A DNA stretch of 64,000 bases, from positions 4,157 through 68,156 of the forward strand of contig JBAMLO010000049.1 of assembly GCA_039793485.1 (NCBI GenBank). Reading direction: 5' to 3'. Under the pieces are notes generated by a model. The model was not told the DNA's origin and searched no databases. It saw only the letters and a program-made list of their open reading frames with translations. The stretch's first letter is position 1. Each line of letters opens with the position of its first letter. Positions 8,010-53,070 of this stretch are shown here, piece by piece. The translations under genes were made by a program, and so were the position numbers. This DNA is from Nitrososphaera sp. Lineage in GTDB: Archaea > Thermoproteota > EX4484-205 > JAAOZO01.

Positions 8010-8017
8010 TGAAGTAG

Positions 8018-9544: not shown

Positions 9545-9546
9545 AA

Positions 9547-10026
9547 CTATACGTTCGGAAATTTATCTCTTACTGGTTTGTAAACTTCTTCAAAAAATTT
9601 TCTTTGGTCTAGCAATGTCTCTTTATCAAACTTCTTTAAATAATCTATAGCTACCTTCCATGCTTCTTCGAATGGCATAACGTCTGCAATTTTGTCTATT
9701 ACTTCTCTTTCAAAATCTGAGGGTTTTTGTTCTTGGGTTCCTATCTTAAACCACCCGCTTTTCGATAAGTATGCTCCCTCGTTTCCAAGGAAGAATATTT
9801 TTTCTTCACCAATTTCCTTTTTTTCTCCTGAAACTTCTCGCGTTGATTTTAATCCTGTTTTACTTGGTCTTGCCTTTAGCGCTCTCTTCGCCCAAGCATA
9901 AAATATTGCTCTGTTAAGACCAAACGATAAAGCTTTTTCAAAATCCTTCATCAAAAGGTAATAACGAGCTGCCTGCAATAGAGCCATAACCTGAAATCTA
10001 CCAATCTTTCTTTCAGCTTTTTTCAT
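9547..10026 (-). CDS. Hypothetical protein
   Basis: 159-aa ORF with good coding appearance. No motif recognised. Confidence 0.3.
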   Translation of the reverse strand: MKKAERKIGRFQVMALLQAARYYLLMKDFEKALSFGLNRAIFYAWAKRALKARPSKTGLKSTREVSGEKKEIGEEKIFFLGNEGAYLSKSGWFKIGTQEQKPSDFEREVIDKIADVMPFEEAWKVAIDYLKKFDKETLLDQRKFFEEVYKPVRDKFPNV

Positions 10027-10842: not shown

Positions 10843-12171
10843 ATGGGTCTGGTAATAAAAAATGGCATCGTACTAACAGGAGAAAAAATAATTAGCGAAG
10901 GAGTTGTCGTTGTAGAAGATGACACTATTGTTGATGTTGGGGACGAAAATCTTATCTCCAAGTATTCTTCTTACGAAAAGTTAGATGCGAAAGGATGCAT
11001 AGTAATGCCTGGTATGATAAACACGCATACGCACGCAGCAATGTCTGTTCTAAGAGGGTACGCTGAAGATTTACCGCTTCACGAGTGGTTACAGAATAAA
11101 ATTTGGCCAGTCGAAGCTAAACTAACACCAAAAGATATTGAACTGGGTGCGACTCTTGGAGCATATGAGTCGCTCTTGTTTGGAGTAACTACTTTAAATT
11201 CAATGTACTTTTATTCAAAGGAAGCAAGCGAGGCTCACGCTTTCGCTAAAGTTGGCATTCGAGCCGTCGTTGGCCATGGCATCTTTGAGACTACTAAAGA
11301 TACTGGGTTCAAGTTAACAGAAGAGCTTACCAAAACATGGCATGGTTATGATAAAGGAAGAATAAGGGTAAGTGTTGATCCCCATGCGCCCTATACAGTG
11401 GGCCCAGGTACGTTTAAAGAGTCAGTTAATCTAGCTAATGAACTTAATGAAAAATATCATGAAAAGGGCAAGATACTTGTTCATACACATGTTGCAGAAT
11501 CTTTTCAGGAGGCTGAATCTATAAAAAAGAACTTTAACGTTAACTTCGATGGTGGTGTTGTGAACTATCTCAACAACTTAGGCATCCTCTCGCCAAACCT
11601 TATAGCGGCTCACATGGTTCATGTTTCAGATGAAGAAATTAGTTTGTTGGCAAAAAACAACGTAAAAGTCTCTCTAAACTTAGTTTCTAACCTAAAGCTT
11701 GGCATGGGCGTTGCTCCGTACTTAAAGCTTAGGGATTTTGGAGTTGTAACTAGCTTAGGAACGGACAGCGCTGCTTCAAATAATGCTCTGGACATTCTAG
11801 AGTCAGCTAAGCTTCTCGCATTACTCTATAGGGGGCTTACACGAAAAGCAGATGCGGTTAAGTCTTATGAAGTTTTTAAGTTAATGACGGTCGAGGGTGC
11901 CAAGGCTTTGTGCTGGGAAAATGAAATCGGAAGGCTAGAGAAAGGATACAAAGCAGACATAGTTGTCTTAAGTTTGAAGAAAGTAAATGCGACCCCTCTT
12001 TATGATCCTTACGCGCATCTAATTTTTTCAGCTAAATGCAACGACGTGCTACACGTATTCGTAAACGGAAAGCAACTTGTTCAAAATGGATCAATAGTTG
12101 GATTAAACTACGAAGAATTCTTTAAAGAAGTAAATAAGCTAAAAGACAAGATTATCTCCATGTCGAGCTAA
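10843..12171 (+). CDS. mtaD: 5-methylthioadenosine/S-adenosylhomocysteine (5'-deoxyadenosine) deaminase, amidohydrolase superfamily
   Basis: HxH metal motif (INTHTHAAM). The size and layout match the MtaD/TRZ/ATZ family. Confidence 0.7.
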   Translation: MGLVIKNGIVLTGEKIISEGVVVVEDDTIVDVGDENLISKYSSYEKLDAKGCIVMPGMINTHTHAAMSVLRGYAEDLPLHEWLQNKIWPVEAKLTPKDIELGATLGAYESLLFGVTTLNSMYFYSKEASEAHAFAKVGIRAVVGHGIFETTKDTGFKLTEELTKTWHGYDKGRIRVSVDPHAPYTVGPGTFKESVNLANELNEKYHEKGKILVHTHVAESFQEAESIKKNFNVNFDGGVVNYLNNLGILSPNLIAAHMVHVSDEEISLLAKNNVKVSLNLVSNLKLGMGVAPYLKLRDFGVVTSLGTDSAASNNALDILESAKLLALLYRGLTRKADAVKSYEVFKLMTVEGAKALCWENEIGRLEKGYKADIVVLSLKKVNATPLYDPYAHLIFSAKCNDVLHVFVNGKQLVQNGSIVGLNYEEFFKEVNKLKDKIISMSS

Positions 12172-33611: not shown

Positions 33612-34724
33612 ATGATGCTTGAGCCAAAAGCGCAGGACTATCTCTTTCCTTTAACTAGAGGTTATCTTCCGCCTCGTCTTCCCTTTAGGGAAAAAGAACT
33701 AAGTGAGCTAGAATCTTTCTATCTTACTGGAATTAAGCTAGGATCCTTTCCTACCTTTCTCTTAATTGGACCAAGAAGCTCAGGAAAAACCACACTTGCA
33801 CTTAAGCTAGCTGAAGGCTTAAGAGTGAAGTTAGGTCTCAGAAGCATAGTAATTGACTGCAGCGCTGAAAGCAGTGAATTCAAAATAATTTCGAAGACGA
33901 TTAACATTCTTGGCATAACTTCAAGTAGACTTAAGGGTTCTTCAACAGAAGAACTTTTATCTTTCTTACTGAGATATTTTGCTTATGACAAACTTAAAAC
34001 CTTAATGGTTCTTGATAACATTGAATGTTTGGGCATTAGCAAAAATAAATTCTTGCTTAGCGCTCTACTGAAACTAAATGAAAACTTCAGAGAGGCCAGT
34101 AGAAACCTCGCGCTACTTTTTACAGCTAATGAAAAAGAATTTGAAAACCTGAGGCAATCAATAAAAGAATTCCAGAGGGTCCCAGTACTTAGGTTAAAGA
34201 GGTATACAAAAGAACAAGTTTACAACATAATAAAGTATAGGATAAGTTTGTTGCCTCTTCACCTTAAGTTTTCTAAGAGTAGCATAGAGCGTCTTGCTGA
34301 ACTCTCAACCAGTTATGAAGATGTAAGCCTAGCTCTTTCCCTTCTTTCGAGTTTAATTTTAGAGGCAAAAAGTACAAGAAAGGAAGAGATAACTCAAAGC
34401 GACGTAGATGACATTTATTCTAAAACGATCATTTCACGTAGTCGAGAATCTTTTACTCTTTCTGATGAGGAGGCGCTAATTTTCAACGTAATCTTAGAAC
34501 TAAAAGGAAACGAGTCTCTTAATCCAATAAAGTCTAGTCTTCTATGGGAAACTTATCAAAAGGTTTGCGAAAGAAAAGGAAAAAAGTTAATTTCATACAC
34601 AAAGTTCTGGAACATACTAGTTCAACTAGAAAGAAAGGGCTTAATAAAAAGGGATGTGAAAAGCTTTGGAAGGTTTGGGAGGTCAACTTTAATTTTCGTC
34701 CATAATGAACCAAATAGAGCTTAA
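33612..34724 (+). CDS. Orc1/Cdc6-family AAA+ protein, divergent paralog with a C-terminal winged helix
   Basis: Conserved N-terminal LPPRLPFREKE (hRE motif). Walker A GPRSSGKT. The Walker B is atypical at VLDNIE, where DE has become DN. Sensor-1 LFTAN. C-terminal wH with GRFGRS. Confidence 0.6.
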   Translation: MMLEPKAQDYLFPLTRGYLPPRLPFREKELSELESFYLTGIKLGSFPTFLLIGPRSSGKTTLALKLAEGLRVKLGLRSIVIDCSAESSEFKIISKTINILGITSSRLKGSSTEELLSFLLRYFAYDKLKTLMVLDNIECLGISKNKFLLSALLKLNENFREASRNLALLFTANEKEFENLRQSIKEFQRVPVLRLKRYTKEQVYNIIKYRISLLPLHLKFSKSSIERLAELSTSYEDVSLALSLLSSLILEAKSTRKEEITQSDVDDIYSKTIISRSRESFTLSDEEALIFNVILELKGNESLNPIKSSLLWETYQKVCERKGKKLISYTKFWNILVQLERKGLIKRDVKSFGRFGRSTLIFVHNEPNRA

Positions 34725-34974
34725 AATTAGAAAAAGAGCTTTAACCCCTTTTTATCGAATACTGAAGGTGCTTTCAGAAGAGGAAGAGCTAACTATTACT
34801 CAAATTGAACTAAGGGCAAGAGTAAATCACAAAACAGCTGTATCCAACCTTATCTTGTTAAAGAATGCGGGAATGGTGTTTGAAGTATCGCTAGGTCGAG
34901 TAAAAATGTACAGACTAAATAAAGACAACGAAAGAGTACAAATTTTAATCAAATTATTTTCTTCTTGGCCTTGA
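34705..34974 (+). CDS. Small winged-helix DNA-binding protein
   Basis: 89 aa with an HTH-like TITQIELRARVNHKTAVSNLILLKNAGMV. It overlaps the end of the Orc1-like gene by 20 nt. Confidence 0.3.
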   Translation: MNQIELKIRKRALTPFYRILKVLSEEEELTITQIELRARVNHKTAVSNLILLKNAGMVFEVSLGRVKMYRLNKDNERVQILIKLFSSWP

Positions 34975-36120
34975 GCTGCCTTTCTTTTTTTCTGCTATAA
35001 AGTTCATCAAAGGAATAGTTTCAAATATGATTGTTCTGGTGGTTTCATGGTATTTTGTTTTCAGCTCTTTTATTTTTCCAGCTCTTTCCTGACTTTTTGA
35101 TATCCTTATCCATTTTTCTGACACCCTATTTGGTCTAGAAAGCCTAATGTATCCACCTTTTTTCGACTCCATAAGAGCAATCGCTAACAAATCGTAAATA
35201 TATGGAATTAATGACCACGACCTCTTCTTTTGAACAGTTGCAAGTATAAAGTCTGCGTCCGCTATTCTCTTTAAAAATTCATAAGCTTTCGTGCTGTCAT
35301 TCGCAATGTTTAGAAAGTTTCCATATATCCAGTCTAAAAGTTCATCGGGATTCATGTCTACGCTCATGAGGTGCGCTTTTGCTTCGTTTATGCTCTTTGC
35401 ATAAATTGCATGTCTAATAGCATCAAATATGCTTTCCTCTCTAAGTCTGTTTCCAAGTAAACTTTTCACTGACCCGTTGCTTATAACTTCGCTTTCTGTA
35501 GTTAATGCCTCCAAGTCTGTTAAAGCACTTCTCATGTCTCCTCCAGACCTTTCAGCAATTGCTTCCAAAGCTTCGTCTTTTATGAGAATGCCTTCTTCTT
35601 CAACAATCTTCTTTAGCCTTTTTAGTACTTGATCTTTTCTTAATCTATTAAATTCTATCATAAGACATTTTTCTCTTATTTCTCTTAAGCTTTGCTTCCA
35701 GGGGTCATTTGCAACCATAACTATTGGACTAGTTGCCTGATCAATTAACTGCTTTATAGCACTAACAGCCCCAACATCTTCTCGCTGGTATATCCCATCA
35801 ACTTCATCAAGGAAAACTAAGTTTGGTTTTCCTGAAATCGATCTGCTTCTTGAAGCTGGAAGAACTTTTTCCAGTATAACGTCTTTTGTTCTTGAGTCGC
35901 TTGCATTAAGCTCGATTAAGTTGTAGCCAAGCATTTTTGCTGCAATTTCTACTGTTAACGACTTTCCAACTCCTGCTGGTCCGTATATCAGTGCTGCCTT
36001 CTTTCCTTCTGGAGACCAGTTTTTTAACCAGTTTAAAAATTCCTCTCGCGCTTTTTCATTTCCAACTATCTCATTCCAGCTTTTGGGTTTAAATTTAGTA
36101 GTCCAAATTTCTCTAAGCAT
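34954..36120 (-). CDS. rfcL: Replication factor C large subunit
   Basis: N-terminal W..KY.P....EIVG and Walker A GPAGVGKS. Adjacent to rfcS. Confidence 0.85.
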   Translation of the reverse strand: MLREIWTTKFKPKSWNEIVGNEKAREEFLNWLKNWSPEGKKAALIYGPAGVGKSLTVEIAAKMLGYNLIELNASDSRTKDVILEKVLPASRSRSISGKPNLVFLDEVDGIYQREDVGAVSAIKQLIDQATSPIVMVANDPWKQSLREIREKCLMIEFNRLRKDQVLKRLKKIVEEEGILIKDEALEAIAERSGGDMRSALTDLEALTTESEVISNGSVKSLLGNRLREESIFDAIRHAIYAKSINEAKAHLMSVDMNPDELLDWIYGNFLNIANDSTKAYEFLKRIADADFILATVQKKRSWSLIPYIYDLLAIALMESKKGGYIRLSRPNRVSEKWIRISKSQERAGKIKELKTKYHETTRTIIFETIPLMNFIAEKKKGSSRPRRK

Positions 36121-36169
36121 TCGTTGATTTCACAGCTCACGATTAACTTTAAATGTCTTTCTCCTAACT

Positions 36170-37156
36170 CTAGCCACTGCTCTGTTTCTTTCTTTTATCT
36201 GCTGAAAGCATACTTATTTTAGCAAGTAAAGCAGAAATTTGAATTTCTGGATCCGCTCCAGAGTGAATTCTGTATTCTACATCAGCCAACATAGAAACCA
36301 TGTCTGCTTTTTCTTGAGCGCTGAGAGTTGATTGTGTCACGTTTTTGTGAATTCCTCTTATTATTTCTTTTGGGGGTATTCCTTCATTGTACAGTAAGTT
36401 GTTTAAGGTGTTCATAGCTGCCTCTAGGTCACCATGAAATGCTTTTTCAAATACTTGGTCGATTTTTCCAACTCCGGCATACCCAATGAAATCCTTTACT
36501 GATTTTACTGTTATGGCTCCTTCAATAGCTGCAGCACCTTGTGCAAAGTTAATTGCTTTTCTCATATCTCCTTCTGACTTTTCAACTATCATTTTTAATG
36601 CCTCTTCTTCGTATTTTATGTTTTCTTTAGTTGCTATTTCCTTCAGTCTTTCTAGGATTGCGCTGTCAGGAAGTGGACCGAATCTAAAAACTGCACACCT
36701 AGATTGTATTGGTTCTATTATCTTGTAAAGTTCGTTTGCTATTAAGATAAATCTTGTTGTGTTTGAGTATCGCTCCATCGTCCTCCTTAAGGCTTGTTGC
36801 GCTTCTTCGGTAGTGCTATCGCACTCATCCAGTATGATAATTTTAAATGGCACTTCGCCCAGAGGAACTGATCGAGCAAATTCCTTAACTCTATTTCTTA
36901 TAACGTCAATTCCTCTCTCATCTGAAGCGTTCAACTCTATGTAGTTTCCTGAAACATTTCCATTGTACATGTCGTAAACTAAAGCCAGTGCAGAAGTTGT
37001 CTTCGAAGTTCCAGGCGGCCCAACGAAAAGCAAGTGGGGCATATTCTTAGTTTTTACAAATGTTTCAAGTCTCTTGACGATTTCTTCTCTATCAACCATT
37101 TCGCTTAGACGCCTTGGTCTGTACTTTTCAGTCCAAACTTGCTCAGCTTCCATCAT
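36170..37156 (-). CDS. rfcS: Replication factor C small subunit
   Basis: WTEKYRP...GPPGTSKTT, the DEAD-like ILDECD motif, and the SRC motif (QSRCAVFRF). Confidence 0.9.
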   Translation of the reverse strand: MMEAEQVWTEKYRPRRLSEMVDREEIVKRLETFVKTKNMPHLLFVGPPGTSKTTSALALVYDMYNGNVSGNYIELNASDERGIDVIRNRVKEFARSVPLGEVPFKIIILDECDSTTEEAQQALRRTMERYSNTTRFILIANELYKIIEPIQSRCAVFRFGPLPDSAILERLKEIATKENIKYEEEALKMIVEKSEGDMRKAINFAQGAAAIEGAITVKSVKDFIGYAGVGKIDQVFEKAFHGDLEAAMNTLNNLLYNEGIPPKEIIRGIHKNVTQSTLSAQEKADMVSMLADVEYRIHSGADPEIQISALLAKISMLSADKRKKQSSG

Positions 37157-37412
37157 CTTGATTTTATTTAGTATTTTTAAAGCAATTTAAAGTTTTTATT
37201 AAAGCTAATGTTTTTGCTGAGGTAAAATAACTAAAAATGGACGTCTCTAAAGTCTTCTTCTAAGAAGCTCATTTTTAAGTTTTCTTAAGCTTTAGACCCT
37301 TCTAACTTTCAGAAAACTTTTGTTCAAACAACTAAAGAGTCTTAGTGTTAACCTAAATTAAACTTAAAAGATAAGGTTATATTACTCTCTTACTAGAACT
37401 ACAACTATAAGT

Positions 37413-37955
37413 TTGATGGAAAGCGAGCGTGCCCTAGTGAGTCTTTTAGTTAAAAAAGGCATAAGCAGAGTGAGAGCTGAGCTACTGATAAAGCCCATAA
37501 AAGTGGCACCAAAGTCGGAAACAGAGCTTTCTTCTACTCTTTTCGGAGAGATTCAAGTAAAGAAGTCTTCAAGTACTGAAATTCCATACTTTGCTGCTAC
37601 CATTATGGAGCGAAACGGGTTGTTGGAAATACCAAACTCTGACTTATCGGAGAAAAACCTAAAAATGCTTAGCTGGAACGAAAAGTACAAGGAAACAAAG
37701 CTTTCTTCTCTACCTGAAAACTTCTATCTCCTAGCGCAAGAAGCGCTTTTGAATACGAAAGATAAAAAAATTGATTCTCTAATTATTGAAATTGTTAGCT
37801 TAAGGATTAAAAAACTATTAAGATATCTCGTCCTTCCTTCAATTCCATCCGAGGTAATAAGTTCTTTTAGTCCAGAGGAGAAGTATCTCTTTTATTTGTT
37901 AAGAGAAGTTATAAGCTCATGGCAAAGGGAGGTGCTTGGAATTGGAGCAAGATAA
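37413..37955 (+). CDS. Possible GINS subunit (Gins23/Gins15-like)
   Basis: A 180-aa alpha-helical protein immediately upstream of, and overlapping, mcm. This is the position occupied by gins23 in several archaea. The assignment is by context only. Confidence 0.3.
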   Translation: MMESERALVSLLVKKGISRVRAELLIKPIKVAPKSETELSSTLFGEIQVKKSSSTEIPYFAATIMERNGLLEIPNSDLSEKNLKMLSWNEKYKETKLSSLPENFYLLAQEALLNTKDKKIDSLIIEIVSLRIKKLLRYLVLPSIPSEVISSFSPEEKYLFYLLREVISSWQREVLGIGAR

Positions 37956-39990
37956 AACTGAATCTATAACTGTTCTTTTCTCAAACTTCATTAGAAGCTT
38001 TTCTGACAACGAGGGTAAGTTTAAGTACTTGGATGCAATAATAAGTATGCCAATAAACTTAGAAAAATCTATAGTAGTAAGCTTTGAAGACATGCTCATT
38101 TTTGATAGTAAACTTTGTGAATTTTTAGAAAAGAATCCAAGTGAAGCAATAAAGCAGTTTGAAGAAGCTGCTTTAATGATTTTAGCTGAGCATGATGCTG
38201 AGTATGCAAAGAAGATAAGAAAAGTCAGAGTTAGAATAAGCGGCTACCCACAATCCGTAACAATAAGAGACCTTAATTCTTCTTTCATAGGAAAAATTGT
38301 TAAAATAGAAGGCGTCGTTGTTAGACAGTCCCAAGTAAAAACACAACTTGTTGAAGGAACTTTCAGGTGTTTGAATTGTGGAACTCTCATTTCGGTCGAG
38401 CAAAATTCTCAAAGTTTAACTCTTCCAAAGGCTTGTCCTGCCTGCAACGCTAACAACCCAAGTAATTTTGAGCTTGATCCCTCTAAGTCCGTGTTTGACG
38501 ACTTTCAAATGATTTCTATTCAAGAAAAACCAGAGTCTTTGCCAGCAGGACAAATTCCTCAAACTATTGACCTTAACTTAACTGGAGACCTAACAAATAA
38601 GGTCAGACCTGGCGATAGAGTTAAGTTAACTGGGATAGTTGGGATTCGTTACGCTAAGTCTGCGTTTGGTAAACCTAAGTCAAAGATATTTGAACTCTCA
38701 CTAGAAGTTAACAATGTTGAAATTGAAACAGAGGAAAGTTCAGACTTAGTATTAAGCGAAGAGTTAATTGAAAAATTCAAGAAAGATGTCAAGGATCCTC
38801 TTTTCTATAGAAAGCTGGTTTCTTCCATTGCTCCCTCAATACATGGTCTTGCTCACATTAAGGAGGCTATACTCCTGCAACTAGTAGGCGGAGTACCTAA
38901 GCAATTTAAAGATGGAATTAGAGTTCGTGGAGACATAAACATTTTACTTGTTGGAGACCCTGGAACTGGAAAGTCGCAACTCTTGAAGTACGCTCAAAGA
39001 ATTGCACCACGTGGTTTGTATACTTCTGGCAGAGGTGCCACAGCAGCTGGACTGACGGCAGCAGCGGTAAGAGATGAAAGTGGCACGTTCATGCTAGAAG
39101 CGGGTGCCTTAGTGCTCGCCGATAAGGGTTTAGCAGCTATCGATGAGTTTGAGAAAATGAGAGAGGAAGATCGAGTAGCAATTCATGAAGCTTTAGAACA
39201 ACAAACATGTAGTATTGCGAAAGGAGGAATAGTGGCTACTCTAAACGCTAGAACTGCAGTTCTAGCTGCAGCCAATCCTCAACTAGGGCGTTATGATCCC
39301 AATAGAAGCTTTTACGACAACATAAGCTTGTCAAGCACGATACTTTCAAGATTCGACCTTTATTTCATATTGAGAGATGTTCCAAATCCATCGGCTGATG
39401 AAGAGCTTGTCACTCATATTTTAGCGCAGCATCGTTACGAAGAAGCTGTAGAAGAGGAAATCTTTGATATCAACTACTTAAGGAAGTTCATCGCTTATGC
39501 AAAAACAATTGAACCAAAGCTTAGCAAAGAAGCAGAGGCAACTATTAAGGCATACTTCCTCTCCTTGAGAAGTGCAAGCACAAGCGCTTCACTTCAAATA
39601 ACCCCAAGGCAACTAGAATCTCTTATAAGGCTGAGTGAGGCTAGAGCTAAGCTGATGCTTAGGAACGAAGTTCTAAAAGAAGATGCTGAAGTAGCAATAA
39701 GGTTGTACAGAATTTCGATGGAGCAAGTTGGAATTGACATGGAAACAGGACAAATAGACGTGGATGCCATAACTGGTAAGCCTCGTTCAACAAGAGAAAA
39801 AATGTCTACAATAATGTCAATCTGCGACCAACTTGAAAGCGAGTTTGGTTCTGCCTCGATAGAAGAAGTTCTAAAGAGGTGTGAAGAAAAAGGAATAGAC
39901 AAAAATGATGCGAGACGTTTAATAAACCAGCTTTTGAGAGATGGCGTGTTTTACTCTCCTGACGACAAATCGCTGAAAAGAGTTAGGTGA
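37936..39990 (+). CDS. mcm: MCM replicative helicase
   Basis: Zn-finger CxxC...CxxC, Walker A GDPGTGKSQ, Walker B DEFEKM and arginine finger SRFDL. The start is TTG at 37936 or a downstream ATG. Confidence 0.9.
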   Translation: MELEQDKTESITVLFSNFIRSFSDNEGKFKYLDAIISMPINLEKSIVVSFEDMLIFDSKLCEFLEKNPSEAIKQFEEAALMILAEHDAEYAKKIRKVRVRISGYPQSVTIRDLNSSFIGKIVKIEGVVVRQSQVKTQLVEGTFRCLNCGTLISVEQNSQSLTLPKACPACNANNPSNFELDPSKSVFDDFQMISIQEKPESLPAGQIPQTIDLNLTGDLTNKVRPGDRVKLTGIVGIRYAKSAFGKPKSKIFELSLEVNNVEIETEESSDLVLSEELIEKFKKDVKDPLFYRKLVSSIAPSIHGLAHIKEAILLQLVGGVPKQFKDGIRVRGDINILLVGDPGTGKSQLLKYAQRIAPRGLYTSGRGATAAGLTAAAVRDESGTFMLEAGALVLADKGLAAIDEFEKMREEDRVAIHEALEQQTCSIAKGGIVATLNARTAVLAAANPQLGRYDPNRSFYDNISLSSTILSRFDLYFILRDVPNPSADEELVTHILAQHRYEEAVEEEIFDINYLRKFIAYAKTIEPKLSKEAEATIKAYFLSLRSASTSASLQITPRQLESLIRLSEARAKLMLRNEVLKEDAEVAIRLYRISMEQVGIDMETGQIDVDAITGKPRSTREKMSTIMSICDQLESEFGSASIEEVLKRCEEKGIDKNDARRLINQLLRDGVFYSPDDKSLKRVR

Positions 39991-46975: not shown

Positions 46976-47074
46976 CTCTCGGTCATTTCTTAATATTTTA
47001 CGGTGGGTATTTAAAGCATTAGAACGTTCGATAACTATTTATGGCGCCTAGCAAATAAAAACGAGCGAAGTTAA

Positions 47075-47464
47075 ATGGTTAAGGTTCTACTCGACTCAAG
47101 TGCGTTGATTTATTGCATTTCGGGCAAGACAAACTTTATTGTTGAGCTAGAAAACCTCCTAGATAAGGTTGATTTTTGTGTTACAGAAAGTACTGTTAAG
47201 GAACTTATCTTACTTTCAAAAATAAGAAGGGGTTCGCTAGCTTCTAGTGCAAAAAAAGCCCTAGAAATTGCAAAAAAAGCCAAAATTTTAAAGTCTGCAA
47301 GCGAAAACGTTGACGAAGACCTTCTAATAGTCGCGAAGAAAAGTAAAGCAATTGTTGCTACTTCGGACAAAAGTCTAAGGGAAAAACTAATAAAAAGTGG
47401 AGTAGCGGTCGCCTTCCCTACCAAAGGGAAAAGAATAAGAATAGATGGTTTTGTAGAGTTGTAG
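47075..47464 (+). CDS. PIN-domain protein, Fcf1/Utp24-like
   Basis: PIN motifs VLLDSSALI, TESTVKEL and IVATSDKSLREKL. Located beside the C/D-box RNP genes. Confidence 0.45.
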   Translation: MVKVLLDSSALIYCISGKTNFIVELENLLDKVDFCVTESTVKELILLSKIRRGSLASSAKKALEIAKKAKILKSASENVDEDLLIVAKKSKAIVATSDKSLREKLIKSGVAVAFPTKGKRIRIDGFVEL

Positions 47465-47470
47465 GGGAAG

Positions 47471-48046
47471 TTGTTTAAGATAATAAAACTAGAAGATACG
47501 TTGAGAGTTCCTCCAGAACTTTATGGTAGGTCTGTTAAAGATGCCATAAGGAGCTTACTCGAGGAAAAGTACGAGGGAATGGTCTTTGAAGACCTTGGCT
47601 TCGTTCTCTCTGTTCTAGACTTTTCATTCAACCCAAAAGGCAAAGTAATGCCCGGCGACGGCGGTTCTTACCATAAGGTTACATTTACCGTTCTATCTTT
47701 TATGCCAGAAGTTCAAGAGGTTACCTTAGGAAAAGTAACAGAAGTTGAAGAGTACGGTGCTTTCGTAAGAATTGGCCCATTTGAAGCTCTCCTGCACGTT
47801 AGTTCTATAGTCGACGACTTCGTTGATTTTAACAAGTCTCAGGGTATCTTAGTTGGCAGAAAGACAAGGCGAGTTCTTTCGAGTGGAGATTGGGTTAGAG
47901 TTAGGATAACCGCAGTAAGTATTGGAGGTGCTGGCGGCGATAAAATTGGAGTGATGAGCAGGCAGCCCTTCTTAGGAAAAGAAGAATGGATACAAGAAGA
48001 CATAAAGAAGCTGGCAGCAGAAGCTAAAGCAAGTGAGCAAAAATGA
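47471..48046 (+). CDS. rpo7: DNA-directed RNA polymerase subunit Rpo7 (E')
   Basis: N-terminal RNAP Rpb7-like domain plus an S1 domain. Followed by spt4. Confidence 0.85.
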   Translation: MFKIIKLEDTLRVPPELYGRSVKDAIRSLLEEKYEGMVFEDLGFVLSVLDFSFNPKGKVMPGDGGSYHKVTFTVLSFMPEVQEVTLGKVTEVEEYGAFVRIGPFEALLHVSSIVDDFVDFNKSQGILVGRKTRRVLSSGDWVRVRITAVSIGGAGGDKIGVMSRQPFLGKEEWIQEDIKKLAAEAKASEQK

Positions 48047-48228
48047 AGGAACATGCATGCATTAAGTGCAAGTTCATAACAACGGAAAGCGTTTGCCCAA
48101 ACTGTGGGTCAACAGAATTTTCAGAAAATTGGTCTGGGGTTGTCTACATAATAAAGCCAGAAGACTCTTACGTTGCAAAGCTCATAAACGCAAAAAAACC
48201 AGGCATGTATGCTATTAAAATAAGATGA
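48043..48228 (+). CDS. spt4: Transcription elongation factor Spt4 (RpoE'')
   Basis: 61 aa with a four-cysteine Zn ribbon (CIKC...CPNC). Conserved position after rpo7. Confidence 0.7.
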   Translation: MKEHACIKCKFITTESVCPNCGSTEFSENWSGVVYIIKPEDSYVAKLINAKKPGMYAIKIR

Positions 48229-48737
48229 ATTTATTCTACAAAATTAAAGAGGAGCAAAGAAGGAAGCTTTCTGTGCCAATAGGGCCGCTCGTAAGAGGAA
48301 CACCCGAGGAAGTAGCAGAAAGAATAAAAGGCAGCTACAAAAACAAGGATATCTCTTTTTGTGTAGGTGATTTTGTTACGAACAATTTTTTAGTACACAA
48401 TATTAAGTTTAAAGCAGCCATAGTTGACTTTAAAACCGAGAGAAAAAAACTTCCAGGTGAACTAAAGTACTGCTTTAAGTTGTTTAATCCGCAAGGACAT
48501 ATAAACGCTGAAGCTTGGAATGTTCTGAAAGCCGCTCTTGAAAAAGACAACGGCTGCATCGTTTTTGTTGAGGGAGAAGAAGACCTACTAGCTTTGCCTG
48601 CAATTGAGGTCTCAGAAATTGGAAGCTTAGTGGTGTATGGCCAACCAGGGGAAGGCGTTGTTGTTGTAGAGGTAAACGATTACTATAAAAAATTTGTAAG
48701 AGAAATTATACTATCGTCAGAAGCTGTTGTTTTCTAA
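48225..48737 (+). CDS. DUF359-family protein (archaeal GTP-dependent dephospho-CoA kinase family)
   Basis: Size is about 170 aa. It follows spt4, which is the conserved position of DUF359. The assignment is by linkage and overall pattern. Confidence 0.45.
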   Translation: MNLFYKIKEEQRRKLSVPIGPLVRGTPEEVAERIKGSYKNKDISFCVGDFVTNNFLVHNIKFKAAIVDFKTERKKLPGELKYCFKLFNPQGHINAEAWNVLKAALEKDNGCIVFVEGEEDLLALPAIEVSEIGSLVVYGQPGEGVVVVEVNDYYKKFVREIILSSEAVVF

Positions 48738-48866
48738 CATCTCCTATGAAAAGTCTATTCTTTTTAATTTTAGAGAAGAAAAATAAATCTTTAGCTCTCC
48801 TTTTTTCTATGCTTTTGCTATGTATTACTTTTTAGTTTGTAGGTGCCGTCTATGTTATCTCTATCT

Positions 48867-49001
48867 AAGATTTTTCTTTTTTGCTTAGAAACCAAGATGC
48901 AAAGGCTTTTAGTGCCTTAGCTCTGTGAGAATACTTGTTTTTCTCTTCGATGCTCATCTCAGCGAACGTGAGGTTTGAGCCTAAAGGCTTAAAGACGGGG
49001 T
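48867..49001. repeat. Left direct repeat (135 bp), a duplicated copy of the ham1 3' end (putative attL)
   Basis: 100 % identical to 51670..51804. Confidence 0.9.
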
Positions 49002-49666
49002 TTTCCTGTTTCAGAGATAGCAAGGTCTACTAGAACTTCGTCTTCAGTAACATCAATATCAGAGATTTCAAGCTTATCTACTTCCAGAGACAATTCATAA
49101 CCTAAAATACGCTTTGCCAGCTTCTTCTTGATCAACTTCTTCGATAAAGAGTAAACAAGTTTTACCATCTCATTAAAATTAAAATGGAAGGCCCCCACCC
49201 GCATTCTAATTCCATACTCAGGTTCAAGTTCAGAGAATAGATGCATGTCAGGAAAGACCAAAATTTTCCTTCCATTCATTAAAGCCTTCACTCGTGGATC
49301 TTTTTTAACTTTTTCGATGCACTTTCTTTCAAGAATCTTATACTGTTTTCTTACTTCATTAAGCTCTTTTAAATGTGTTTTGTTATTTTGAAATTCCTCC
49401 TCAGAGAGTTCCAATGTGATTTCATAAACTTTGTTTTTCTCCCTTAGAACTAGATTAAGCAAGCGGTCTACTAAGATTCCAATGCTTTCTCGATCTCTAG
49501 TGTATGCATCGATACCAAAAAGTATATCCTTACTTCTACTCTTCCCAACTAAAGTTATGCGACATTCCTTGGTTGTTACTTTCCAAAACTTCTTAGCGCA
49601 AATTTCGCTATTGGTTTTCGCAGATTTGTAGTCGTCGCCCCACCCCCAAATAGTAATTTTTTTCAT
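48989..49666 (-). CDS. Hypothetical protein (island cargo)
   Basis: 225-aa ORF. Its last 13 nt run into the left direct repeat in a frame different from ham1. No recognisable motif. Confidence 0.4.
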
Positions 49667-50577
49667 TCTTCTTTCCTCTTTTTTATTCTCCCTCTTCTTA
49701 CCTTTCCTTCCTTATATGCTTTTAGAAACCTTTTGAACCTTTCTATATGTGAAGGTTTACAACTTCCTATCTCCTCAATGAATCTCATTTGCTCTTTTGA
49801 GTATATCTCTAAGTAATGTGCATCGTAAGTTCTATCAGTGCGAACCTCAGAAGGATTAAAGCCTAGTCTTACTAATGCTTCTCTGACCTCCTCTAAGCAA
49901 TCTTTGTATTTTGACGATATCCGAAGTTTAATAGCATACTTCCCATGCTTTGCAACGCTCCCATCCCCTGAGAAAAAACCCCTTAAGTACGCTCTCAATC
50001 CTTCTTTATCTAGATGCTCTAAAGGAACATGATACCTATATGGTCCAGTCTTAGCACCTATTTCTTTTAAGTCATAATATGCTTCCTTGTTAGCTATTCC
50101 TGCTATAAGTTCACCTTTACCTTTGTAGATATTTGGCACCTTCCCGTAAACTTTCTCAAACAGTTCATTAAACCTTTTAATAAGTTCAATGTCAGCAGAG
50201 TGAAAGAAAATTCTGTAATGACCTCTTTGAGAAGGTAAACTTCCTTCAGAAGCTATAAGGCCGCATAATTCTGCTTTTTCAGGAATAAAAATTTCTTTTA
50301 TTCCATCTTTCGATACCTCTAGCATTACTCCAAGGCCCAAAGGGAACAAAATTCTATCTTCTTCCATCTTCGCCTTTGAAAATGTAGCTATAACGGTGTC
50401 TCCTCTTACTAATTTGTACTCTTCGCTTTCTGTTATACTTACTTTATACTCACCAAACTCTATTGTTTGTTGGCTTGATTGCTCACAAGATTTCCATCCT
50501 TCTTTATTTTCTGTAGAAACATGCTCCCCTTCGTGAAATCTTAGTTGGTGCTGTCTTATCAGCGAAGCTTCTCCCAT
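49663..50577 (-). CDS. LAGLIDADG-type homing-endonuclease-like protein, two-motif form
   Basis: Two LAGLIDADG-like motifs about 95 aa apart: LCGLIASEGSL and YLRGFFSGDGSV. The basic C-terminal tail is [13 protein letters not shown]. Confidence 0.55.
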   Translation of the reverse strand: MGEASLIRQHQLRFHEGEHVSTENKEGWKSCEQSSQQTIEFGEYKVSITESEEYKLVRGDTVIATFSKAKMEEDRILFPLGLGVMLEVSKDGIKEIFIPEKAELCGLIASEGSLPSQRGHYRIFFHSADIELIKRFNELFEKVYGKVPNIYKGKGELIAGIANKEAYYDLKEIGAKTGPYRYHVPLEHLDKEGLRAYLRGFFSGDGSVAKHGKYAIKLRISSKYKDCLEEVREALVRLGFNPSEVRTDRTYDAHYLEIYSKEQMRFIEEIGSCKPSHIERFKRFLKAYKEGKVRRGRIKKRKEE

Positions 50578-50578
50578 T

Positions 50579-51661
50579 TCATGTATTTCGCTTCCAATCT
50601 AATAAGTTGTGAATAGCTAATATCCTTTTACAGGATTCTAGATCTTTGATCCATAGATCGATTAAATCCTGTGGTGTCATACCTCTACAGGCATCGCAGT
50701 AACATTCCTTAAATCTTATTCTTTCATCTCTCATATCATATAATTTACAATTTCTGAAATAAAGCCCATGTTTAGCTTCAAGAAACCACGAAAAATTGCT
50801 ATAACTTATTCTACTATATTTGAGCTTTCTTCCAACTCCGTAAACAAGCATTTCAAAATTTTTGTTGTTAGTTTTGCCTAACTTCTTTAACATGCTCAAT
50901 ACATATGGAAGAACGTCATTTAACAAACCTTGCTCAAAAAGTTCTCTAGAGGGCATGACAAAGGAAACATAGCCCATCTCTATCTCTTTTTTAAGAGACC
51001 AATATATTTGACGTAAGTTTGCTCCCTTAATTAAACCAATTAATGGAATGTCAAGACAAAGAAACTCGTTTGCAAGTTGTACTAATCGTATTGTTTGCGA
51101 CCAAGATTGATATAATGGTGCATCAGTGTATGTATAGTTGTCCGGTATCATTGTAGCATCTGGTTTTAGGTCTTCAATTAGCTTGAGGTAGTCATCTATT
51201 TTTAGCTTATCAATAAGTTCATCTGGCATAACTGTGGATAGTAATATTTTTCCATTAAATTCAAGGAAGTCATGAAGACTTTTGCTTAAAGCCTTTAGTA
51301 GCAGATCTTTATGGAGAATCAACTGCCAAAGTGGAACAAATATAGCGGATGTCTCTACCTCCTCTTTCCAGAACCACGAGCTCTGGTCTGTTACATCAAC
51401 TTGAGGTATAAAAGTCGAAAAGTTGACTTTTAACATGCTTTTCTTTTTAAGAGGCGGAAGTAAGAGGGGAGGAGGCTTGCTCTTTCCTCCAATTGGACAG
51501 TACTCTCTTAGTTTGCAGAACGACTTGGGATAAGTTATGCCTGTAAAGGAATGTCCCTTAATGCATAGATCTACAAGACAACTTTCAATTACACAACCAG
51601 GACATAGTTTTCTATAGTAGTAGCATTCTTCACAAAGTATTCCACATTTACTTTTTTTCAT
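50579..51661 (-). CDS. tRNA-guanine-transglycosylase-superfamily protein (TGT/DpdA-like) with an N-terminal Cys-rich extension
   Basis: The C-terminal CYCDAC followed 25 residues later by H (AIHNL) equals the TGT zinc signature C-x-C-x2-C-x25-H (E. coli CDCYTC...TIHNL). The N-terminus contains CGILCEECYYY, a CxxxCxxC-aromatic arrangement, plus four more cysteines. Confidence 0.5.
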   Translation of the reverse strand: MKKSKCGILCEECYYYRKLCPGCVIESCLVDLCIKGHSFTGITYPKSFCKLREYCPIGGKSKPPPLLLPPLKKKSMLKVNFSTFIPQVDVTDQSSWFWKEEVETSAIFVPLWQLILHKDLLLKALSKSLHDFLEFNGKILLSTVMPDELIDKLKIDDYLKLIEDLKPDATMIPDNYTYTDAPLYQSWSQTIRLVQLANEFLCLDIPLIGLIKGANLRQIYWSLKKEIEMGYVSFVMPSRELFEQGLLNDVLPYVLSMLKKLGKTNNKNFEMLVYGVGRKLKYSRISYSNFSWFLEAKHGLYFRNCKLYDMRDERIRFKECYCDACRGMTPQDLIDLWIKDLESCKRILAIHNLLDWKRNT

Positions 51662-51667
51662 TTCTGC

Positions 51668-52240
51668 TCAAGATTTTTCTTTTTTGCTTAGAAACCAAGA
51701 TGCAAAGGCTTTTAGTGCCTTAGCTCTGTGAGAATACTTGTTTTTCTCTTCGATGCTCATCTCAGCGAACGTGAGGTTTGAGCCTAAAGGCTTAAAGACG
51801 GGGTCAAATCCGAAGCCGCTTTTTCCTCGGGCTTCAGTTGTTATTACTCCATCTACTCTTCCACTAAAGATCTTTAGTTCACCTCCTGGTTCGCCGTAGG
51901 CTAAAGCTGTCATAAAGTAAGCCGACCTATCTGTTGAGCCAGAGAGCAATTTAAGTATGCCTTCATAACCAATTGTTCTATAAACGTATGACGAGTATAC
52001 ACCTGGAAAGCCATTCAAAGATTTTATAAAAAGACCGGAGTCGTCGATGATGAAGTTTCCCTTAACAATCTTTAAAGCGTCCTCAGCACACTTCCTAACA
52101 ACTTCTTCTAAGCTGTCTGACTGAGGCTCGGTTATGTCAAGGTCAACCTGCTCAAGTTCAATTCCAAAGTCCTTAAGCAATTTTTGTGCTTCAAGGAACT
52201 TTCCACGGTTGCTAGTTATGAAGATAAGTTTAGCCTTCAT
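51668..52240 (-). CDS. ham1: Non-canonical purine NTP pyrophosphatase (Ham1/ITPase/RdgB family)
   Basis: N-terminal FITSNRGK and central FGFDPVF are hallmark Ham1 motifs. Confidence 0.85.
   Translation of the reverse strand: MKAKLIFITSNRGKFLEAQKLLKDFGIELEQVDLDITEPQSDSLEEVVRKCAEDALKIVKGNFIIDDSGLFIKSLNGFPGVYSSYVYRTIGYEGILKLLSGSTDRSAYFMTALAYGEPGGELKIFSGRVDGVITTEARGKSGFGFDPVFKPLGSNLTFAEMSIEEKNKYSHRAKALKAFASWFLSKKEKS
51670..51804. repeat. Right direct repeat (135 bp), the native 3' end of ham1 (putative attR)
   Basis: 100 % identical to 48867..49001. Its reverse complement encodes the ham1 C-terminus ...[42 protein letters not shown]. Confidence 0.9.
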
Positions 52241-52413
52241 TGGACAATGCTTTCATTAGGTGCTATTAAAAGCTTAAAACTCTTAGTAGCAATGAGACAA
52301 CGAACGCTTAAAAGATAGAAGTAGCATGCAAGTTTAAAGACTACTTAAAGTATCGTTTTATTCTTGTCTATGGCTCTTTAAAATTTTCTTAAAATTTAGT
52401 ATTAGAGTTTGTT

Positions 52414-53070
52414 TTATTTGCTTTTTCTCCTTTGCTTATATCTTCCTCTCTTATTTATTTCGTTCAGTCTCCCAATTATCTCTCTCGAAGCTTCTCCGCC
52501 TTGACTAATATAGCCGTTAATTATGGCATTCCACTTCTTATAATAGCTATCTCCAAGCTTTGATTGCAAACTCTTTTGAAGGACATTTAAATCTTCAGCA
52601 AATTTTTCGATATCTGAAACTTTTTCTCCTAAGCCAAAGTCGATGAAATAAGGTTCGTGGTTTACTACTATTATGTTTGATGGAGTAAGGTCTCCATGGT
52701 AAATTTTTGAAGAGTGCATCAAGTAGATATCTCTGCCAACTTTATTAAGCAGTTCTTCGTTTTCTTCTTGAATAACTTCAGCTAAGCTCTTTCCTTCTAC
52801 GAAAGACATTATAAGCCAACCCTTCACTGGGTTAACGTGAAGAACATAAGGAACTTTAATTCCGGCCTTTTTTGCTTCATAAAGTAAGGAAGCTTCTTTT
52901 AATGTCCTTGACTTTATTAGCTCGTCATCAAGTTCCCTTACTCTGTAGCCTTTCTTAATTCTTTTCTTCAAAACAACTCTTATGTTAAGCCAAATTCCAA
53001 GCCATAGCTCTGCTTCAGCTCCTCTGTAAAGTAGCTTCTCGGGTATAAATTCACCAGGGAATTCTGACAT
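52414..53070 (-). CDS. bud32: KEOPS complex kinase Bud32
   Basis: Small RIO-like kinase with HGDLTPSNII and DFG. Immediately downstream of kae1, with an overlap. Confidence 0.8.
   Translation of the reverse strand: MSEFPGEFIPEKLLYRGAEAELWLGIWLNIRVVLKKRIKKGYRVRELDDELIKSRTLKEASLLYEAKKAGIKVPYVLHVNPVKGWLIMSFVEGKSLAEVIQEENEELLNKVGRDIYLMHSSKIYHGDLTPSNIIVVNHEPYFIDFGLGEKVSDIEKFAEDLNVLQKSLQSKLGDSYYKKWNAIINGYISQGGEASREIIGRLNEINKRGRYKQRRKSK

Follow-up and report, generated by a model that had tools for sequence, protein, structure and literature searches.

The gene at positions 50579-51661 of the window (the whole 64,000-nt stretch of DNA analysed here) encodes a TGT-like protein inside a mobile element, and the initial annotation proposed it as a candidate DpdA-like DNA or RNA transglycosylase. 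This raises the question of whether the protein can still perform base exchange and, if not, what a TGT fold does in such an element. The gene (TGTL) and the parts of its product are located as follows.

50579-51661, minus strand: TGT-like gene TGTL, 360 aa, ATG start, first gene of the cassette
51494-51661, minus strand: N-terminal Cys-rich region of TGTL, aa 1-56 (C6, C10, C13, C20, C23, C28, C33, C49, C55), from the family alignment, AF2 and Pfam
50762-51412, minus strand: predicted TIM-barrel core, aa ~84-300, from model secondary structure, HMM alignment to ArcTGT, hhalign to E. coli Tgt and clade-wide conservation
50609-50704, minus strand: zinc motif C320-x-C322-xx-C325-x25-H351, visible in the translation, alignable with the zinc sites of both ArcTGT and E. 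coli Tgt, family-conserved

Fold and domains of TGTL

The motifs on which the proposal was built are present. The translation reads C320-Y-C322-D-A-C325, followed by 25 residues and H351 within AIHNLL, which is exactly the C-x-C-x2-C-x25-H signature described in the initial annotation, and both HMMER and hhalign match it to the zinc-binding positions in ArcTGT and E. coli Tgt. Among 38 homologues, C322 never varies, and conservation is 90% or higher for C320, C325, and H351. The TGT-like blocks MIPDNYT and LVYGVGRK were also confirmed, at aa 171-177 and 272-279, respectively. A profile search and a structure prediction had been suggested as checks on the superfamily assignment. The former gave a divided answer: the ArcTGT profile matches TGTL (E=3e-6), whereas PF01702 (TGT) scores 18.7 bits, below its gathering cut-off of 26.3, and covers only aa 295-353. 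TIGR00449 (NCBIfam) likewise scores 10.2 against a cut-off of 47.6, and matches to the PADLOC 'TGT' model are weak. The latter agreed with the assignment, the AF2 model showing a TGT-type (β/α)8 barrel at the fold level. ArcTGT is the best match by both sequence and Foldseek (E=1e-12). Judged by its predicted structure, TGTL belongs to the TGT superfamily as a diverged protein that keeps a TIM barrel and a zinc subdomain.

ArcTGT (PDB 1IQ8) is, like TGTL, archaeal and has the CxCx2Cx25H spacing followed by HNL. The two proteins are only ~19-20% identical, however, and the C-terminal domains of ArcTGT are missing from TGTL. Moreover, ArcTGT is encoded by a single housekeeping gene, whereas TGTL is multi-copy and mobile.

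An additional Cys-rich N-terminal domain, found in neither TGT nor DpdA, had been pointed out earlier together with its CxxxCxxC cluster, and both are borne out. The cluster (C6-x3-C10-x2-C13) belongs to a set of nine Cys that is kept in every homologue having an N-terminus in the alignment of 38. The AF2 model has a pLDDT of ~50 in this region. The radical-SAM-like character attributed to the ~60-aa domain did not survive. Because the aromatic residue comes after, not before, the last Cys of CxxxCxxC, the sequence does not follow the CX3CX-φ-C pattern. A Pfam search with the N-terminal 70 aa of four TGTL-family proteins returned no match even at E<=10, radical SAM and ferredoxin families included, and the ferredoxin identity was rejected on the same result.

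Catalytic and base-recognising residues

Three Asp residues are invariant in TGT and DpdA, and their mutation abolishes activity (PMC10164549, the DpdA structure paper). TGTL lacks the general acid/base Asp (D102 in Z. mobilis, D95 in both ArcTGT and DpdA). The HMM alignment places ArcTGT D95 opposite S142 (posterior ~0.7), a Ser that is invariant in the close family (38 homologues) and at least 90% conserved in the wider clade. The nucleophile (D280 in Z. mobilis, D249 in ArcTGT, D264 in E. coli, D256 in DpdA) is absent by two independent alignments, ArcTGT D249 being placed at S288 by the HMM alignment (posterior ~0.8) and E. coli D264 at the same residue by hhalign. Column 288 is variable in the close family (S, A, I or T, never acidic), and the neighbouring columns contain no Asp. 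Neither the S142 nor the S288 column is ever Asp in the 38 close homologues or in the 25 diverse clade members aligned. The third residue, the base-recognising Asp, is retained as D174, which is invariant in the clade and corresponds in the alignments to D130 of ArcTGT and D143 of E. coli (equivalent to Z. mobilis D156 and DpdA D130). K212-G213 aligns with the Gln-Gly position in both the HMM alignment and hhalign, K212 occupying the Gln/His/Lys position. The part of the pocket predicted to read a purine, D174 and K212, is therefore kept.

The pattern of two lost and one retained Asp appears to hold for the whole TGTL clade, whose 274 cluster representatives include no canonical TGT. Since the general acid/base and the nucleophile are both lost, TGTL is predicted to be incapable of canonical double-displacement base exchange. 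Some other acidic residue might still take up the place of either Asp. According to the family and clade alignments, the invariant residues of the core are S142, D147, D168, D174, Y178, K212-G213, Y274-G275, and W292. The invariant polar residues S142, D147, D168, Y178, and Q218 would suit a reader no less than a re-tooled enzyme.

These substitutions bear on the proposal that TGTL is a DpdA- or ArcTGT-like transglycosylase, which would insert host-made 7-deazaguanine into DNA or tRNA and thereby shield the DNA of the element or host from restriction. The zinc site, the retained base-recognising Asp, the weak PADLOC matches and the mobile-element context are in its favour, and it is established that TGT-fold enzymes modify DNA sequence-specifically (PMC10164549, PMC6884629). 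However, both catalytic Asp residues are gone clade-wide, and in DpdA mutating either one kills activity (PMC10164549). DpdA (PDB 7UI4), which inserts preQ0 into DNA in the Dpd system and in phages, has Asp95 and Asp256, for which TGTL has no equivalents, and it lacks the nine-Cys domain. TGTL is no nearer to DpdA than to the TGT, QTRT2, and ArcTGT branches, and its Pfam TGT score stays below the gathering threshold. In the Dpd system DpdA is accompanied by DpdB, a ParB-like ATPase, whereas the obligate neighbours of TGTL are a LAGLIDADG nuclease and a protein of 225 aa (P225). Neither the cassette nor the ~61 kb of the window with annotations contains a gene for DpdB, DpdC or preQ0 synthesis. 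The absence of preQ0 genes alongside TGTL, already remarked upon in the initial annotation, extends to the QueC, QueD, QueE, FolE, and TGT families throughout the Pfam annotations of positions ~840-61,700. The initial annotation is partly supported: the mobile-element setting, the extra Cys-rich domain, and the absence of preQ0 genes hold, whereas the Asp pair, the affinity to DpdA, and the partner genes speak against DpdA. Considering these three points and the lack of radical-SAM features, canonical 7-deazaguanine insertion by TGTL seems unlikely, and we consider the transglycosylase proposal as a whole improbable.

Other members of the superfamily offer two further comparisons. Cap10 of type IV CBASS (PDB 9NTN), which partners the QueC-like Cap9 and modifies a protein, retains its catalytic Asp248 and a D73/S74/D122 pocket, unlike TGTL. 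QTRT2 (QTRTD1, PDB 6FV5), the non-catalytic subunit of eukaryotic TGT, resembles TGTL in having kept the fold and the zinc site while losing the catalytic residues. TGTL could accordingly be conceived as a QTRT2-like pseudoenzyme that pairs with host ArcTGT or tRNA, for instance to manipulate archaeosine modification of the targeted tRNAs, and the association of cassettes with tRNA genes would fit such a role. QTRT2, however, forms a heterodimer with the catalytic QTRT1 on tRNA, whereas the cassette encodes no catalytic partner and the pocket of TGTL is strongly conserved. Furthermore, the constant partners are nucleases or phosphoesterases rather than tRNA enzymes, and one cassette lineage targets Ham1 and has no tRNA link. 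This pairing strikes us as very improbable indeed.

The three-gene cassette and its target sites

In the window, TGTL belongs to a repeat-bounded unit with the following features.

48867-49001, no strand: second copy of the direct repeat, a piece of the Ham1 3' end that is displaced and has no promoter (repeat search; tblastn finds Ham1 aa 146-190 a second time)
48989-49666, minus strand: P225, 225 aa, found only in the same lineage as the cassette
49002-51669, minus strand: cassette insert without the repeats, 2,668 bp long (2,803 bp if one repeat is counted), from the repeat spacing of 2803 and similar units elsewhere
49663-50577, minus strand: LAGLIDADG endonuclease, 304 aa, two motifs (…LIASEG…, …FFSGDG…), Pfam LAGLIDADG_3 (PF14528) E=5e-19
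51668-52240, minus strand: the Ham1/ITPase gene used as target, 190 aa and intact; Pfam Ham1p_like E=3e-52 over the full profile (1-186 of 186)
51670-51804, no strand: first copy of the direct repeat, formed by the final 135 nt of Ham1/ITPase, which is intact (repeat search, 135 nt, 100% identity)

The perfect 135-nt direct repeat encloses exactly three genes and was found in a second assembly of the same species (134/135 identity), in agreement with the mobile-element location given earlier. The genes are translationally coupled in the order TGTL, LAGLIDADG, and P225: the LAGLIDADG gene starts 1 nt past the TGTL stop, and P225 overlaps the LAGLIDADG stop by 4 nt. The last four codons and the stop of P225 fall within the repeat. 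The acidic motif residues of the endonuclease (D/E at aa 111, D at aa 205) are kept in 31/31 intact copies, and the enzyme is apparently active. P225 is predicted to adopt a novel fold of two domains, and its model contains no recombinase fold. Pfam, NCBIfam, PHROGs, and PADLOC scans detected no integrase or recombinase among the three cassette proteins. The surroundings of the cassette in the window are housekeeping genes, not a defence island. An Rfam scan of positions 47000-53000 gave no structured RNA at E<=1, and ARAGORN found no tRNA in the whole window. A promoter/terminator scan remained at background level and, being designed for bacteria, carries no information here.

Copies elsewhere were compared using MAGs and metagenome contigs, from which all comparative data derive. 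The gene order is kept in at least 33 cassettes, and units of the same kind, ~2.65-2.9 kb in length, are bounded by repeats at other loci. A single Brockarchaeota MAG carries up to ~8 cassette loci with diverged copies, some of them decayed. Repeats of 27-135 nt surround 16 cassettes; 11 of these repeats reproduce the host target, in most cases the 3' half of a tRNA, and those at tRNA-adjoining cassettes measure 27-81 nt. The cassette usually adjoins the 3' end of a tRNA gene, and in at least 15 loci that end faces it. Two such loci, L020 and L026, have nothing in common except the element and tRNA-Leu. At the Ham1 site, full, internally deleted, solo-fragment, and empty alleles were found. 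Comparing locus L071, which is empty, with the occupied L005 and L070 yields attB/attL/attR-like junctions. The results show that the cassette is multi-copy and precisely inserted at the 3' ends of tRNA genes or Ham1, and that the host gene remains intact because the cassette is bracketed by 27-135-nt repeats of the target 3' end. As the repeat-bounded unit holds only these three genes in lineages with different target sites, they appear to be the whole mobile unit.

Several explanations for the repeats and for a free form of the element were rejected. A simple staggered-cut target-site duplication does not serve as a general explanation, given repeat lengths from ~27 to 135 nt and the situation at L015, where compensatory changes in the T-stem distinguish the two copies of the tRNA 3' half, which therefore come from two different functional tRNAs. 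Two Logan contigs of ~2.8 kb (L055 and L057) were considered as circles; both ends lie in the tRNA T-arm repeat, with an overlap of only 17-21 nt, which is no sign of circularity. Four JGI contigs (L061-L064) considered as an episomal form proved to be one integrated sequence that is always broken at approximately codon 100 of P225. Among the contigs examined, no circular or episomal cassette was found, and an IMG/VR scan with the TGTL family profile revealed no viral relative.

The cassette shares features with three kinds of known elements. Like archaeal tRNA-targeting integrative elements (SSV-type and pTN3-type, with tyrosine integrases), it inserts at tRNA 3' ends, restores the gene through repeats, and has lineage-specific targets, and one lineage has an att site that overlaps a gene of the element. 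It differs in having no tyrosine or serine recombinase in the repeat-bounded unit, a size of only 2.7 kb, three unrelated genes, and repeats ranging from 27 to 135 nt. Free-standing LAGLIDADG homing genes likewise have conserved catalytic residues, fixed sites in conserved genes, and full, degenerate, and empty alleles reflecting a cycle of invasion, decay, and loss. Classical homing, however, involves neither long target repeats nor further genes, whereas the cassette has two more genes that are strictly co-inherited, one of which is more conserved than the nuclease. Restriction-modification (R-M) units with long target duplications are also small selfish nuclease units with direct target repeats of ~100 nt, but the cassette is archaeal, has no methyltransferase, and targets tRNA 3' ends.

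Possible roles of TGTL

We tentatively favour the reading in which TGTL, instead of inserting preQ0/7-deazaguanine, uses its base pocket for recognition or processing, as a subunit alongside the nuclease of a self-mobile cassette; we hold it with less than even confidence. The LAGLIDADG nuclease would start insertion, and host homologous recombination would finish it through the element-borne copy of the target 3' end. TGTL would dock on the nucleic acid at the attachment site as a base-flipping recognition or processing subunit and, once docked, may either license the nuclease or shield resident copies from it. A homing-type model leaves unexplained how repeat copies escape re-cleavage, both copies in the window being identical. 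A simple model of an element carrying the target 3' end does not fit the Ham1 lineage in other genomes, where the repeat lies within the 5' coding region of TGTL.

A bolder proposal, which we regard as possible but doubtful, makes TGTL the hallmark DNA-processing enzyme and functional 'integrase' of an unrecognised class of integrase-less elements. It would use a re-tooled active site (Ser142, Asp147, Asp174, Tyr178, Lys212) together with its nuclease partner to insert 2.7-kb cassettes at tRNA 3' ends. The wider clade without the catalytic Asp pair would then constitute a new family whose modules act on nucleic acids or nucleobases and were repeatedly recruited by conflict systems with LAGLIDADG, metallophosphoesterase or TIR effectors.

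TGTL is the most conserved of the three cassette genes (e.g., 62/37/35% identity in L006), and among its relatives the TGT-like protein stays constant where the neighbouring nuclease differs or where a calcineurin-like metallophosphoesterase is fused to it. A variable nuclease beside a conserved partner recalls restriction enzymes and their methyltransferases. TGTL may be a re-tooled enzyme, for example a sequence-specific DNA glycosylase or a non-canonical base modifier acting through D147 or S142, that forms an R-M-like selfish pair with LAGLIDADG, with TGTL as the conserved 'M/immunity' component or lesion-maker and the nuclease as the variable 'R'. The catalytic face of the barrel carries polar and acidic residues that never vary, which is compatible with this, and the fused metallophosphoesterase could clean DNA ends. 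R.PabI is a restriction glycosylase, and some R-M insertions are reportedly flanked by long target duplications of ~100 nt. However, no nucleophile was found in TGTL, and insertion specific to tRNA 3' ends is atypical of R-M units. In three loci (L031, L034, and L015), moreover, the LAGLIDADG gene is intact and TGTL is frameshifted, a state that would be lethal for such a pair unless complemented in trans or due to assembly error. On balance we think an R-M-like pair unlikely.

The distant relatives introduce a further option. Two homologues without the zinc site, P0223 and P0234, lie in a conserved module of CARF/Csa3-like, TGT-like, ThsB-type TIR, and 8xMP genes; one adjoins Mrr-type nuclease and methyltransferase genes, and the other is on a conjugative element. 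Because of these CARF-TIR defence-type modules, TGTL could be a defence sensor carried as cargo. Without catalysis and without a role of its own in mobility, it would sense a ligand that contains a base, which could be a nucleotide signal or a modified purine in invading DNA, and would be coupled to an effector; the cassette would then be a small system for defence or abortive infection, riding along with a homing endonuclease. Loss of catalytic residues with retention of the pocket is the usual signature of a reader domain, and the calcineurin-like phosphoesterase fusions resemble the sensor-effector architecture of PUA-Calcineurin-CE-HAD systems (bioRxiv 10.64898/2026.01.15.699771). Nevertheless, the TIR-linked relatives are only 22-29% identical to TGTL and have neither the zinc site nor the Cys domain, the window cassette is not in a defence island, and the repeat-bounded unit consists of only three genes across lineages with different sites. 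In addition, up to ~8 diverged, decaying copies per genome look selfish rather than selected for defence. We therefore judge the cargo-sensor option to have a low probability, on a par with the R-M-like pair, and retain the subunit working with the nuclease as the preferred reading.

To our knowledge, every characterised enzyme of the TGT superfamily (bacterial TGT, ArcTGT, QTRT1, DpdA, and Cap10) uses the same Asp nucleophile. A clade that has dropped this residue, yet keeps a conserved pocket and always travels with nucleases, a phosphoesterase or a TIR protein, suggests either new chemistry or a new reader function for the fold. Such genes should not be annotated as 'queuine tRNA-ribosyltransferase' or DpdA. 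In literature searches on TGT-like proteins with LAGLIDADG, mobile elements or Brockarchaeota, no description of the TGTL family or the cassette was found. Few site-specific integrative units known from archaea are as small as the cassette, which has no recognisable recombinase. It could yield compact, programmable DNA-targeting parts from thermophiles, and the way in which three genes insert precisely at tRNA 3' ends could reveal a new mechanism of mobility.

A repeat-bounded three-gene cassette

The TGT-like protein of the window is encoded by the first of three tightly packed minus-strand genes, which a direct repeat brackets exactly.

50579-51661, minus strand: TGT-like protein, 360 aa
minus strand, start 1 nt past the stop of the TGT-like gene: LAGLIDADG protein, 304 aa (PF14528, E = 5e-19)
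minus strand, 4-nt overlap with the LAGLIDADG stop: protein of 225 aa (P225)
48867-49001 and 51670-51804: perfect 135-nt direct repeat around the three genes

The repeat is the 3' end of the intact Ham1/ITPase gene. The TGT-like gene starts 6 nt beyond the Ham1 stop codon, and the last four codons and stop of P225 lie inside the second repeat copy, a displaced Ham1 fragment. The neighbours are housekeeping genes (Kae1, Bud32, DUF359, Spt4, and Rpo7). The cassette structure recurs in a second assembly of this species, with a repeat identity of 134/135. Neither preQ0 nor tgt genes were found in the annotated ~61 kb of the window, in agreement with the initial annotation, which had stated that no preQ0 synthesis genes accompany the protein. 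By coordinate arithmetic, contig JBMFJS010000005.1 (L059, same species) is expected to end inside repeat copy 2, at window position ~48,900, which would fit a repeat-induced assembly break. The window also holds replication genes at 33612-39990, namely Orc1/Cdc6 (33612-34724), two RFC subunits (34954-37156), a GINS/Sld5-like gene (~37416-37955), and MCM (37936-39990); this cluster may mark a replication-origin region.

Fold and active site of the TGT-like protein

Sequence methods detect TGT family membership weakly. Pfam PF01702 matched at E = 1e-3 over aa 295-353 only, and the score of 18.7 bits lies under the cut-off of 26.3, so that the Pfam check yielded a match but one below threshold. 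The E-values were 0.25 with NCBIfam tgt_general, 1e-3 with PADLOC 'TGT', and, with the archaeosine transglycosylase ArcTGT (1iq8), 2e-3 by single sequence and 3e-6 by family profile. The AlphaFold2 model computed from the family alignment has high confidence at residues 70-360 (mean pLDDT 85) and is poor at residues 1-60. With this model ArcTGT was the top Foldseek hit (E = 1e-12), ahead of dozens of Z. mobilis TGT entries. The protein has the TGT fold and is a genuine member of the superfamily, about equidistant from every characterised branch.

Its translation ends in C320-Y-C322-D-A-C325, 25 residues, and H351 within AIHNLL, which is the zinc signature C-x-C-x2-C-x25-H described initially. 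Among 38 aligned homologues C322 never varies, and conservation at C320, C325, and H351 reaches at least 90%. The N-terminus carries C6-GIL-C10-EE-C13 and then C20, C23, C28, C33, C49, and C55; all nine cysteines are conserved where a homologue has this region. Many ~290-aa database entries lack it only through start-codon choice, and at nearly all genome loci the tblastn match to the DNA begins at residues 1-3. Because of this conservation, and of the N-terminus being present in the DNA, the Cys/His pattern is correct and not due to chance. The CxxxCxxC spacing is real, but the radical-SAM-like arrangement that had been read into it did not hold up: the aromatic residue stands after the last cysteine, not before it, the domain spans ~60 residues, and a Pfam search with four family N-termini found nothing at E ≤ 10. 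The low model confidence is compatible with a metal-dependent fold, in which the metal could be Zn or Fe-S.

TGTs and DpdAs have three invariant aspartates in common, and exchange is lost in D95A or D256A mutants (PMC10164549). In the HMM alignment, ArcTGT D95 corresponds to Ser142 (posterior ~0.7), D130 to Asp174, and the nucleophile D249 to Ser288 (posterior ~0.8); the same register is reached by counting back from the Ala-Lys that is conserved in the next helix. An independent hhalign comparison with E. coli Tgt matched its D143 to D174, its pocket Gln to K212, and its nucleophile D264 to S288, and aligned the zinc site too. Across the 38 homologues Ser142 is invariant, and the Ser288 column contains S, A, I, or T, with no acidic residue in the adjoining columns. 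When 1.84 billion cluster representatives were searched exhaustively by HMM, only 274 relatives reached E ≤ 1e-3, and among the 150 matches listed none looks like a canonical TGT. In 25 diverse clade members D174, Y178, G213, and G275 are invariant, and P86, L133, G137, S142, D147, D168, K212, Q218, and N352 are at least 90% conserved. By these alignments the two catalytic aspartates have been lost and the pocket keeps its purine-reading part, although a substitute acidic residue may reach the site. The CBASS homologue Cap10, unlike this family, retains its catalytic Asp248. For all the TGT fold and zinc site, serines at the D95 and nucleophile positions and the equal distance to all branches argue against the DpdA-like transglycosylase proposed initially, and a true insertase of this kind is improbable. 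The protein could also be a pseudoenzyme acting on tRNA or ArcTGT, like the non-catalytic subunit QTRT2, which we regard as highly unlikely.

Distribution and insertion sites of the cassette

All 115 close homologues come from Thermoproteota/Brockarchaeota MAGs or unnamed metagenome sequences. Scanning one genome per species gave 52 loci; the MAG GD2_1 has the most, 8, and three further MAGs have 6-7. The gene order is kept in at least 33 cassettes. Many of the remainder are truncated at contig ends or have frameshifts or deletions. All sequences derive from MAGs and metagenomes, and some frameshifts may be assembly errors. Around 16 cassettes there are direct repeats of 27-135 nt at a spacing of 2.65-2.9 kb, and in 11 of them the repeats are copies of the host target, mostly 3' parts of tRNA genes. 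ARAGORN located a tRNA gene with its 3' end towards one cassette end in at least 15 loci, either upstream of the TGT-like gene or downstream of P225, and the two positions fit a single intergenic att region in circular permutation. Insertion is target-specific: related elements have common targets, and a group of 80-86% identity lies entirely at tRNA-Leu genes. Loci L020 and L026 have the element and the tRNA alone in common, a pattern of mobility, whereas synteny throughout L009/L011 and L014/L015 is vertical inheritance. The tRNA 3'-half copies flanking the cassettes of L015 (7883-7922 vs 10716-10755) and L014 (7890-7927 vs 10716-10753) differ by compensatory T-stem changes (CTGGG/CCCAG vs CCGCG/CGCGG); therefore, one copy came from a different functional tRNA, and the foreign copy in L015 was presumably carried by the element.

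Several loci show other arrangements. One cassette sequence recurs at ≥99.9% identity in four JGI metagenomes (L061-L064), every contig stopping at about codon 100 of P225; a repeat, strain variation, or a hot spot of rearrangement could explain this break. A ~2.5-kb insertion splits the LAGLIDADG gene of L048 (9441-11948). L016, L018, L021, and L022 (~7030-9990) contain a rearranged variant in which P225 is inverted upstream of the TGT-like gene and both borders carry a 49-58-nt repeat of the LAGLIDADG 3' end; a tRNA-Gly gene follows just downstream. L026 also has a solitary fragment (11778-11920, residues 1-48 of the TGT-like protein) ~180 nt from a tRNA-Val gene and 3 kb from a full cassette.

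In other genomes, too, the closest cassette lineage (TGT-like proteins 71-73% identical) lies immediately behind Ham1. Scanning metagenomes with Ham1 brought up alleles of this site in all states, from occupied to empty.

Alleles at the Ham1 site (metagenome loci)
Full cassette: L070, L076, L078, L079
Internal deletion joining codon ~8 of the TGT-like gene to LAGLIDADG residue ~240: L069, L072, L073, L075
Further decay: L074
~100-nt 5' fragment of the TGT-like gene alone: L066, L067, L071
Nothing inserted: L077, L080

The window genome has its nearest relatives in L066 and L067 (88% nt identity). The Ham1 site is an insertion hot spot, and with a repeat-bounded unit, multiple copies, and polymorphic alleles the mobile-element location suggested initially is supported. 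Synteny between L071 and the occupied alleles L005 and L070 extends to both flanks, and the junctions of the three are attB-, attL-, and attR-like with a 35-47-nt common core. In this lineage the core lies inside codons ~12-27 of the TGT-like gene, not in Ham1. Repeats thus vary in nature and length between insertion events, which argues for homology-dependent recombination and against a fixed-core recombinase or a fixed staggered cut.

Proposed role and wider clade

The three cassette proteins include no tyrosine or serine recombinase, no transposase, and no Rep. The LAGLIDADG nuclease is probably active, because both acidic motif residues are kept in 31 of 31 intact copies. All known members of its family start recombination by a double-strand break that is repaired by host homologous recombination. 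The cassette nuclease would initiate in this way, and homology would be supplied by an element-carried copy of the target 3' end. This would explain why repeats are present and vary in length and why the host gene stays intact, although identical repeat copies would have to escape re-cleavage, and the core inside the TGT-like gene at Ham1 in other genomes fits a simple form of this model poorly. The TGT-like protein is the constant and most conserved component (for example, identities of 62/37/35% for the three proteins in L006 and 57/39/37% in L020), with its purine pocket kept and its exchange chemistry lost. It would therefore most likely flip and read, or otherwise process, a base at the attachment site and either license the nuclease or shield resident copies. 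We tentatively favour this reading as a whole, short of even confidence. The protein could instead be a re-tooled enzyme forming a restriction-modification-like pair with the nuclease, which seems unlikely.

The wider clade includes distant paralogues (25-28% identity) of 530-617 aa, in which a Cys-rich N-terminus and a TGT-like barrel with zinc site are fused to a C-terminal calcineurin-like metallophosphoesterase matching Pfam Metallophos and Metallophos_2 (L053 7968-11576; L010 3395-7597, minus strand). By eye, the next gene has LAGLIDADG-like motifs in L053 and a C-terminus resembling PD-(D/E)xK in L010. Short relatives of ~300 aa have neither the Cys domain nor the zinc motif. Two of them, ~33% identical to each other, each lie in a conserved module of a divergently transcribed CARF/Csa3-like gene, the TGT-like gene, a ThsB-type TIR gene, and 8xMP (L147 5035-8010; L150 187-2660; also L148, L149, and L151). 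One module adjoins Mrr-type nuclease, DNA methyltransferase, and integrase genes, and the other is on a T4SS conjugative element; they may represent an undescribed Thoeris/CARF-type defence module. Thus, the Asp-less barrel recurs beside effectors typical of conflict systems. Such company would suit a defence sensor carried as cargo, a reading to which we give a low probability.

Full-text literature searches found no description of the family or the cassette. Within the TGT superfamily the TGT-like proteins form a new clade, Asp-less throughout, and the cassette is an integrative element with unprecedented gene content; there is a minor but real chance that its mobility mechanism is categorically new.
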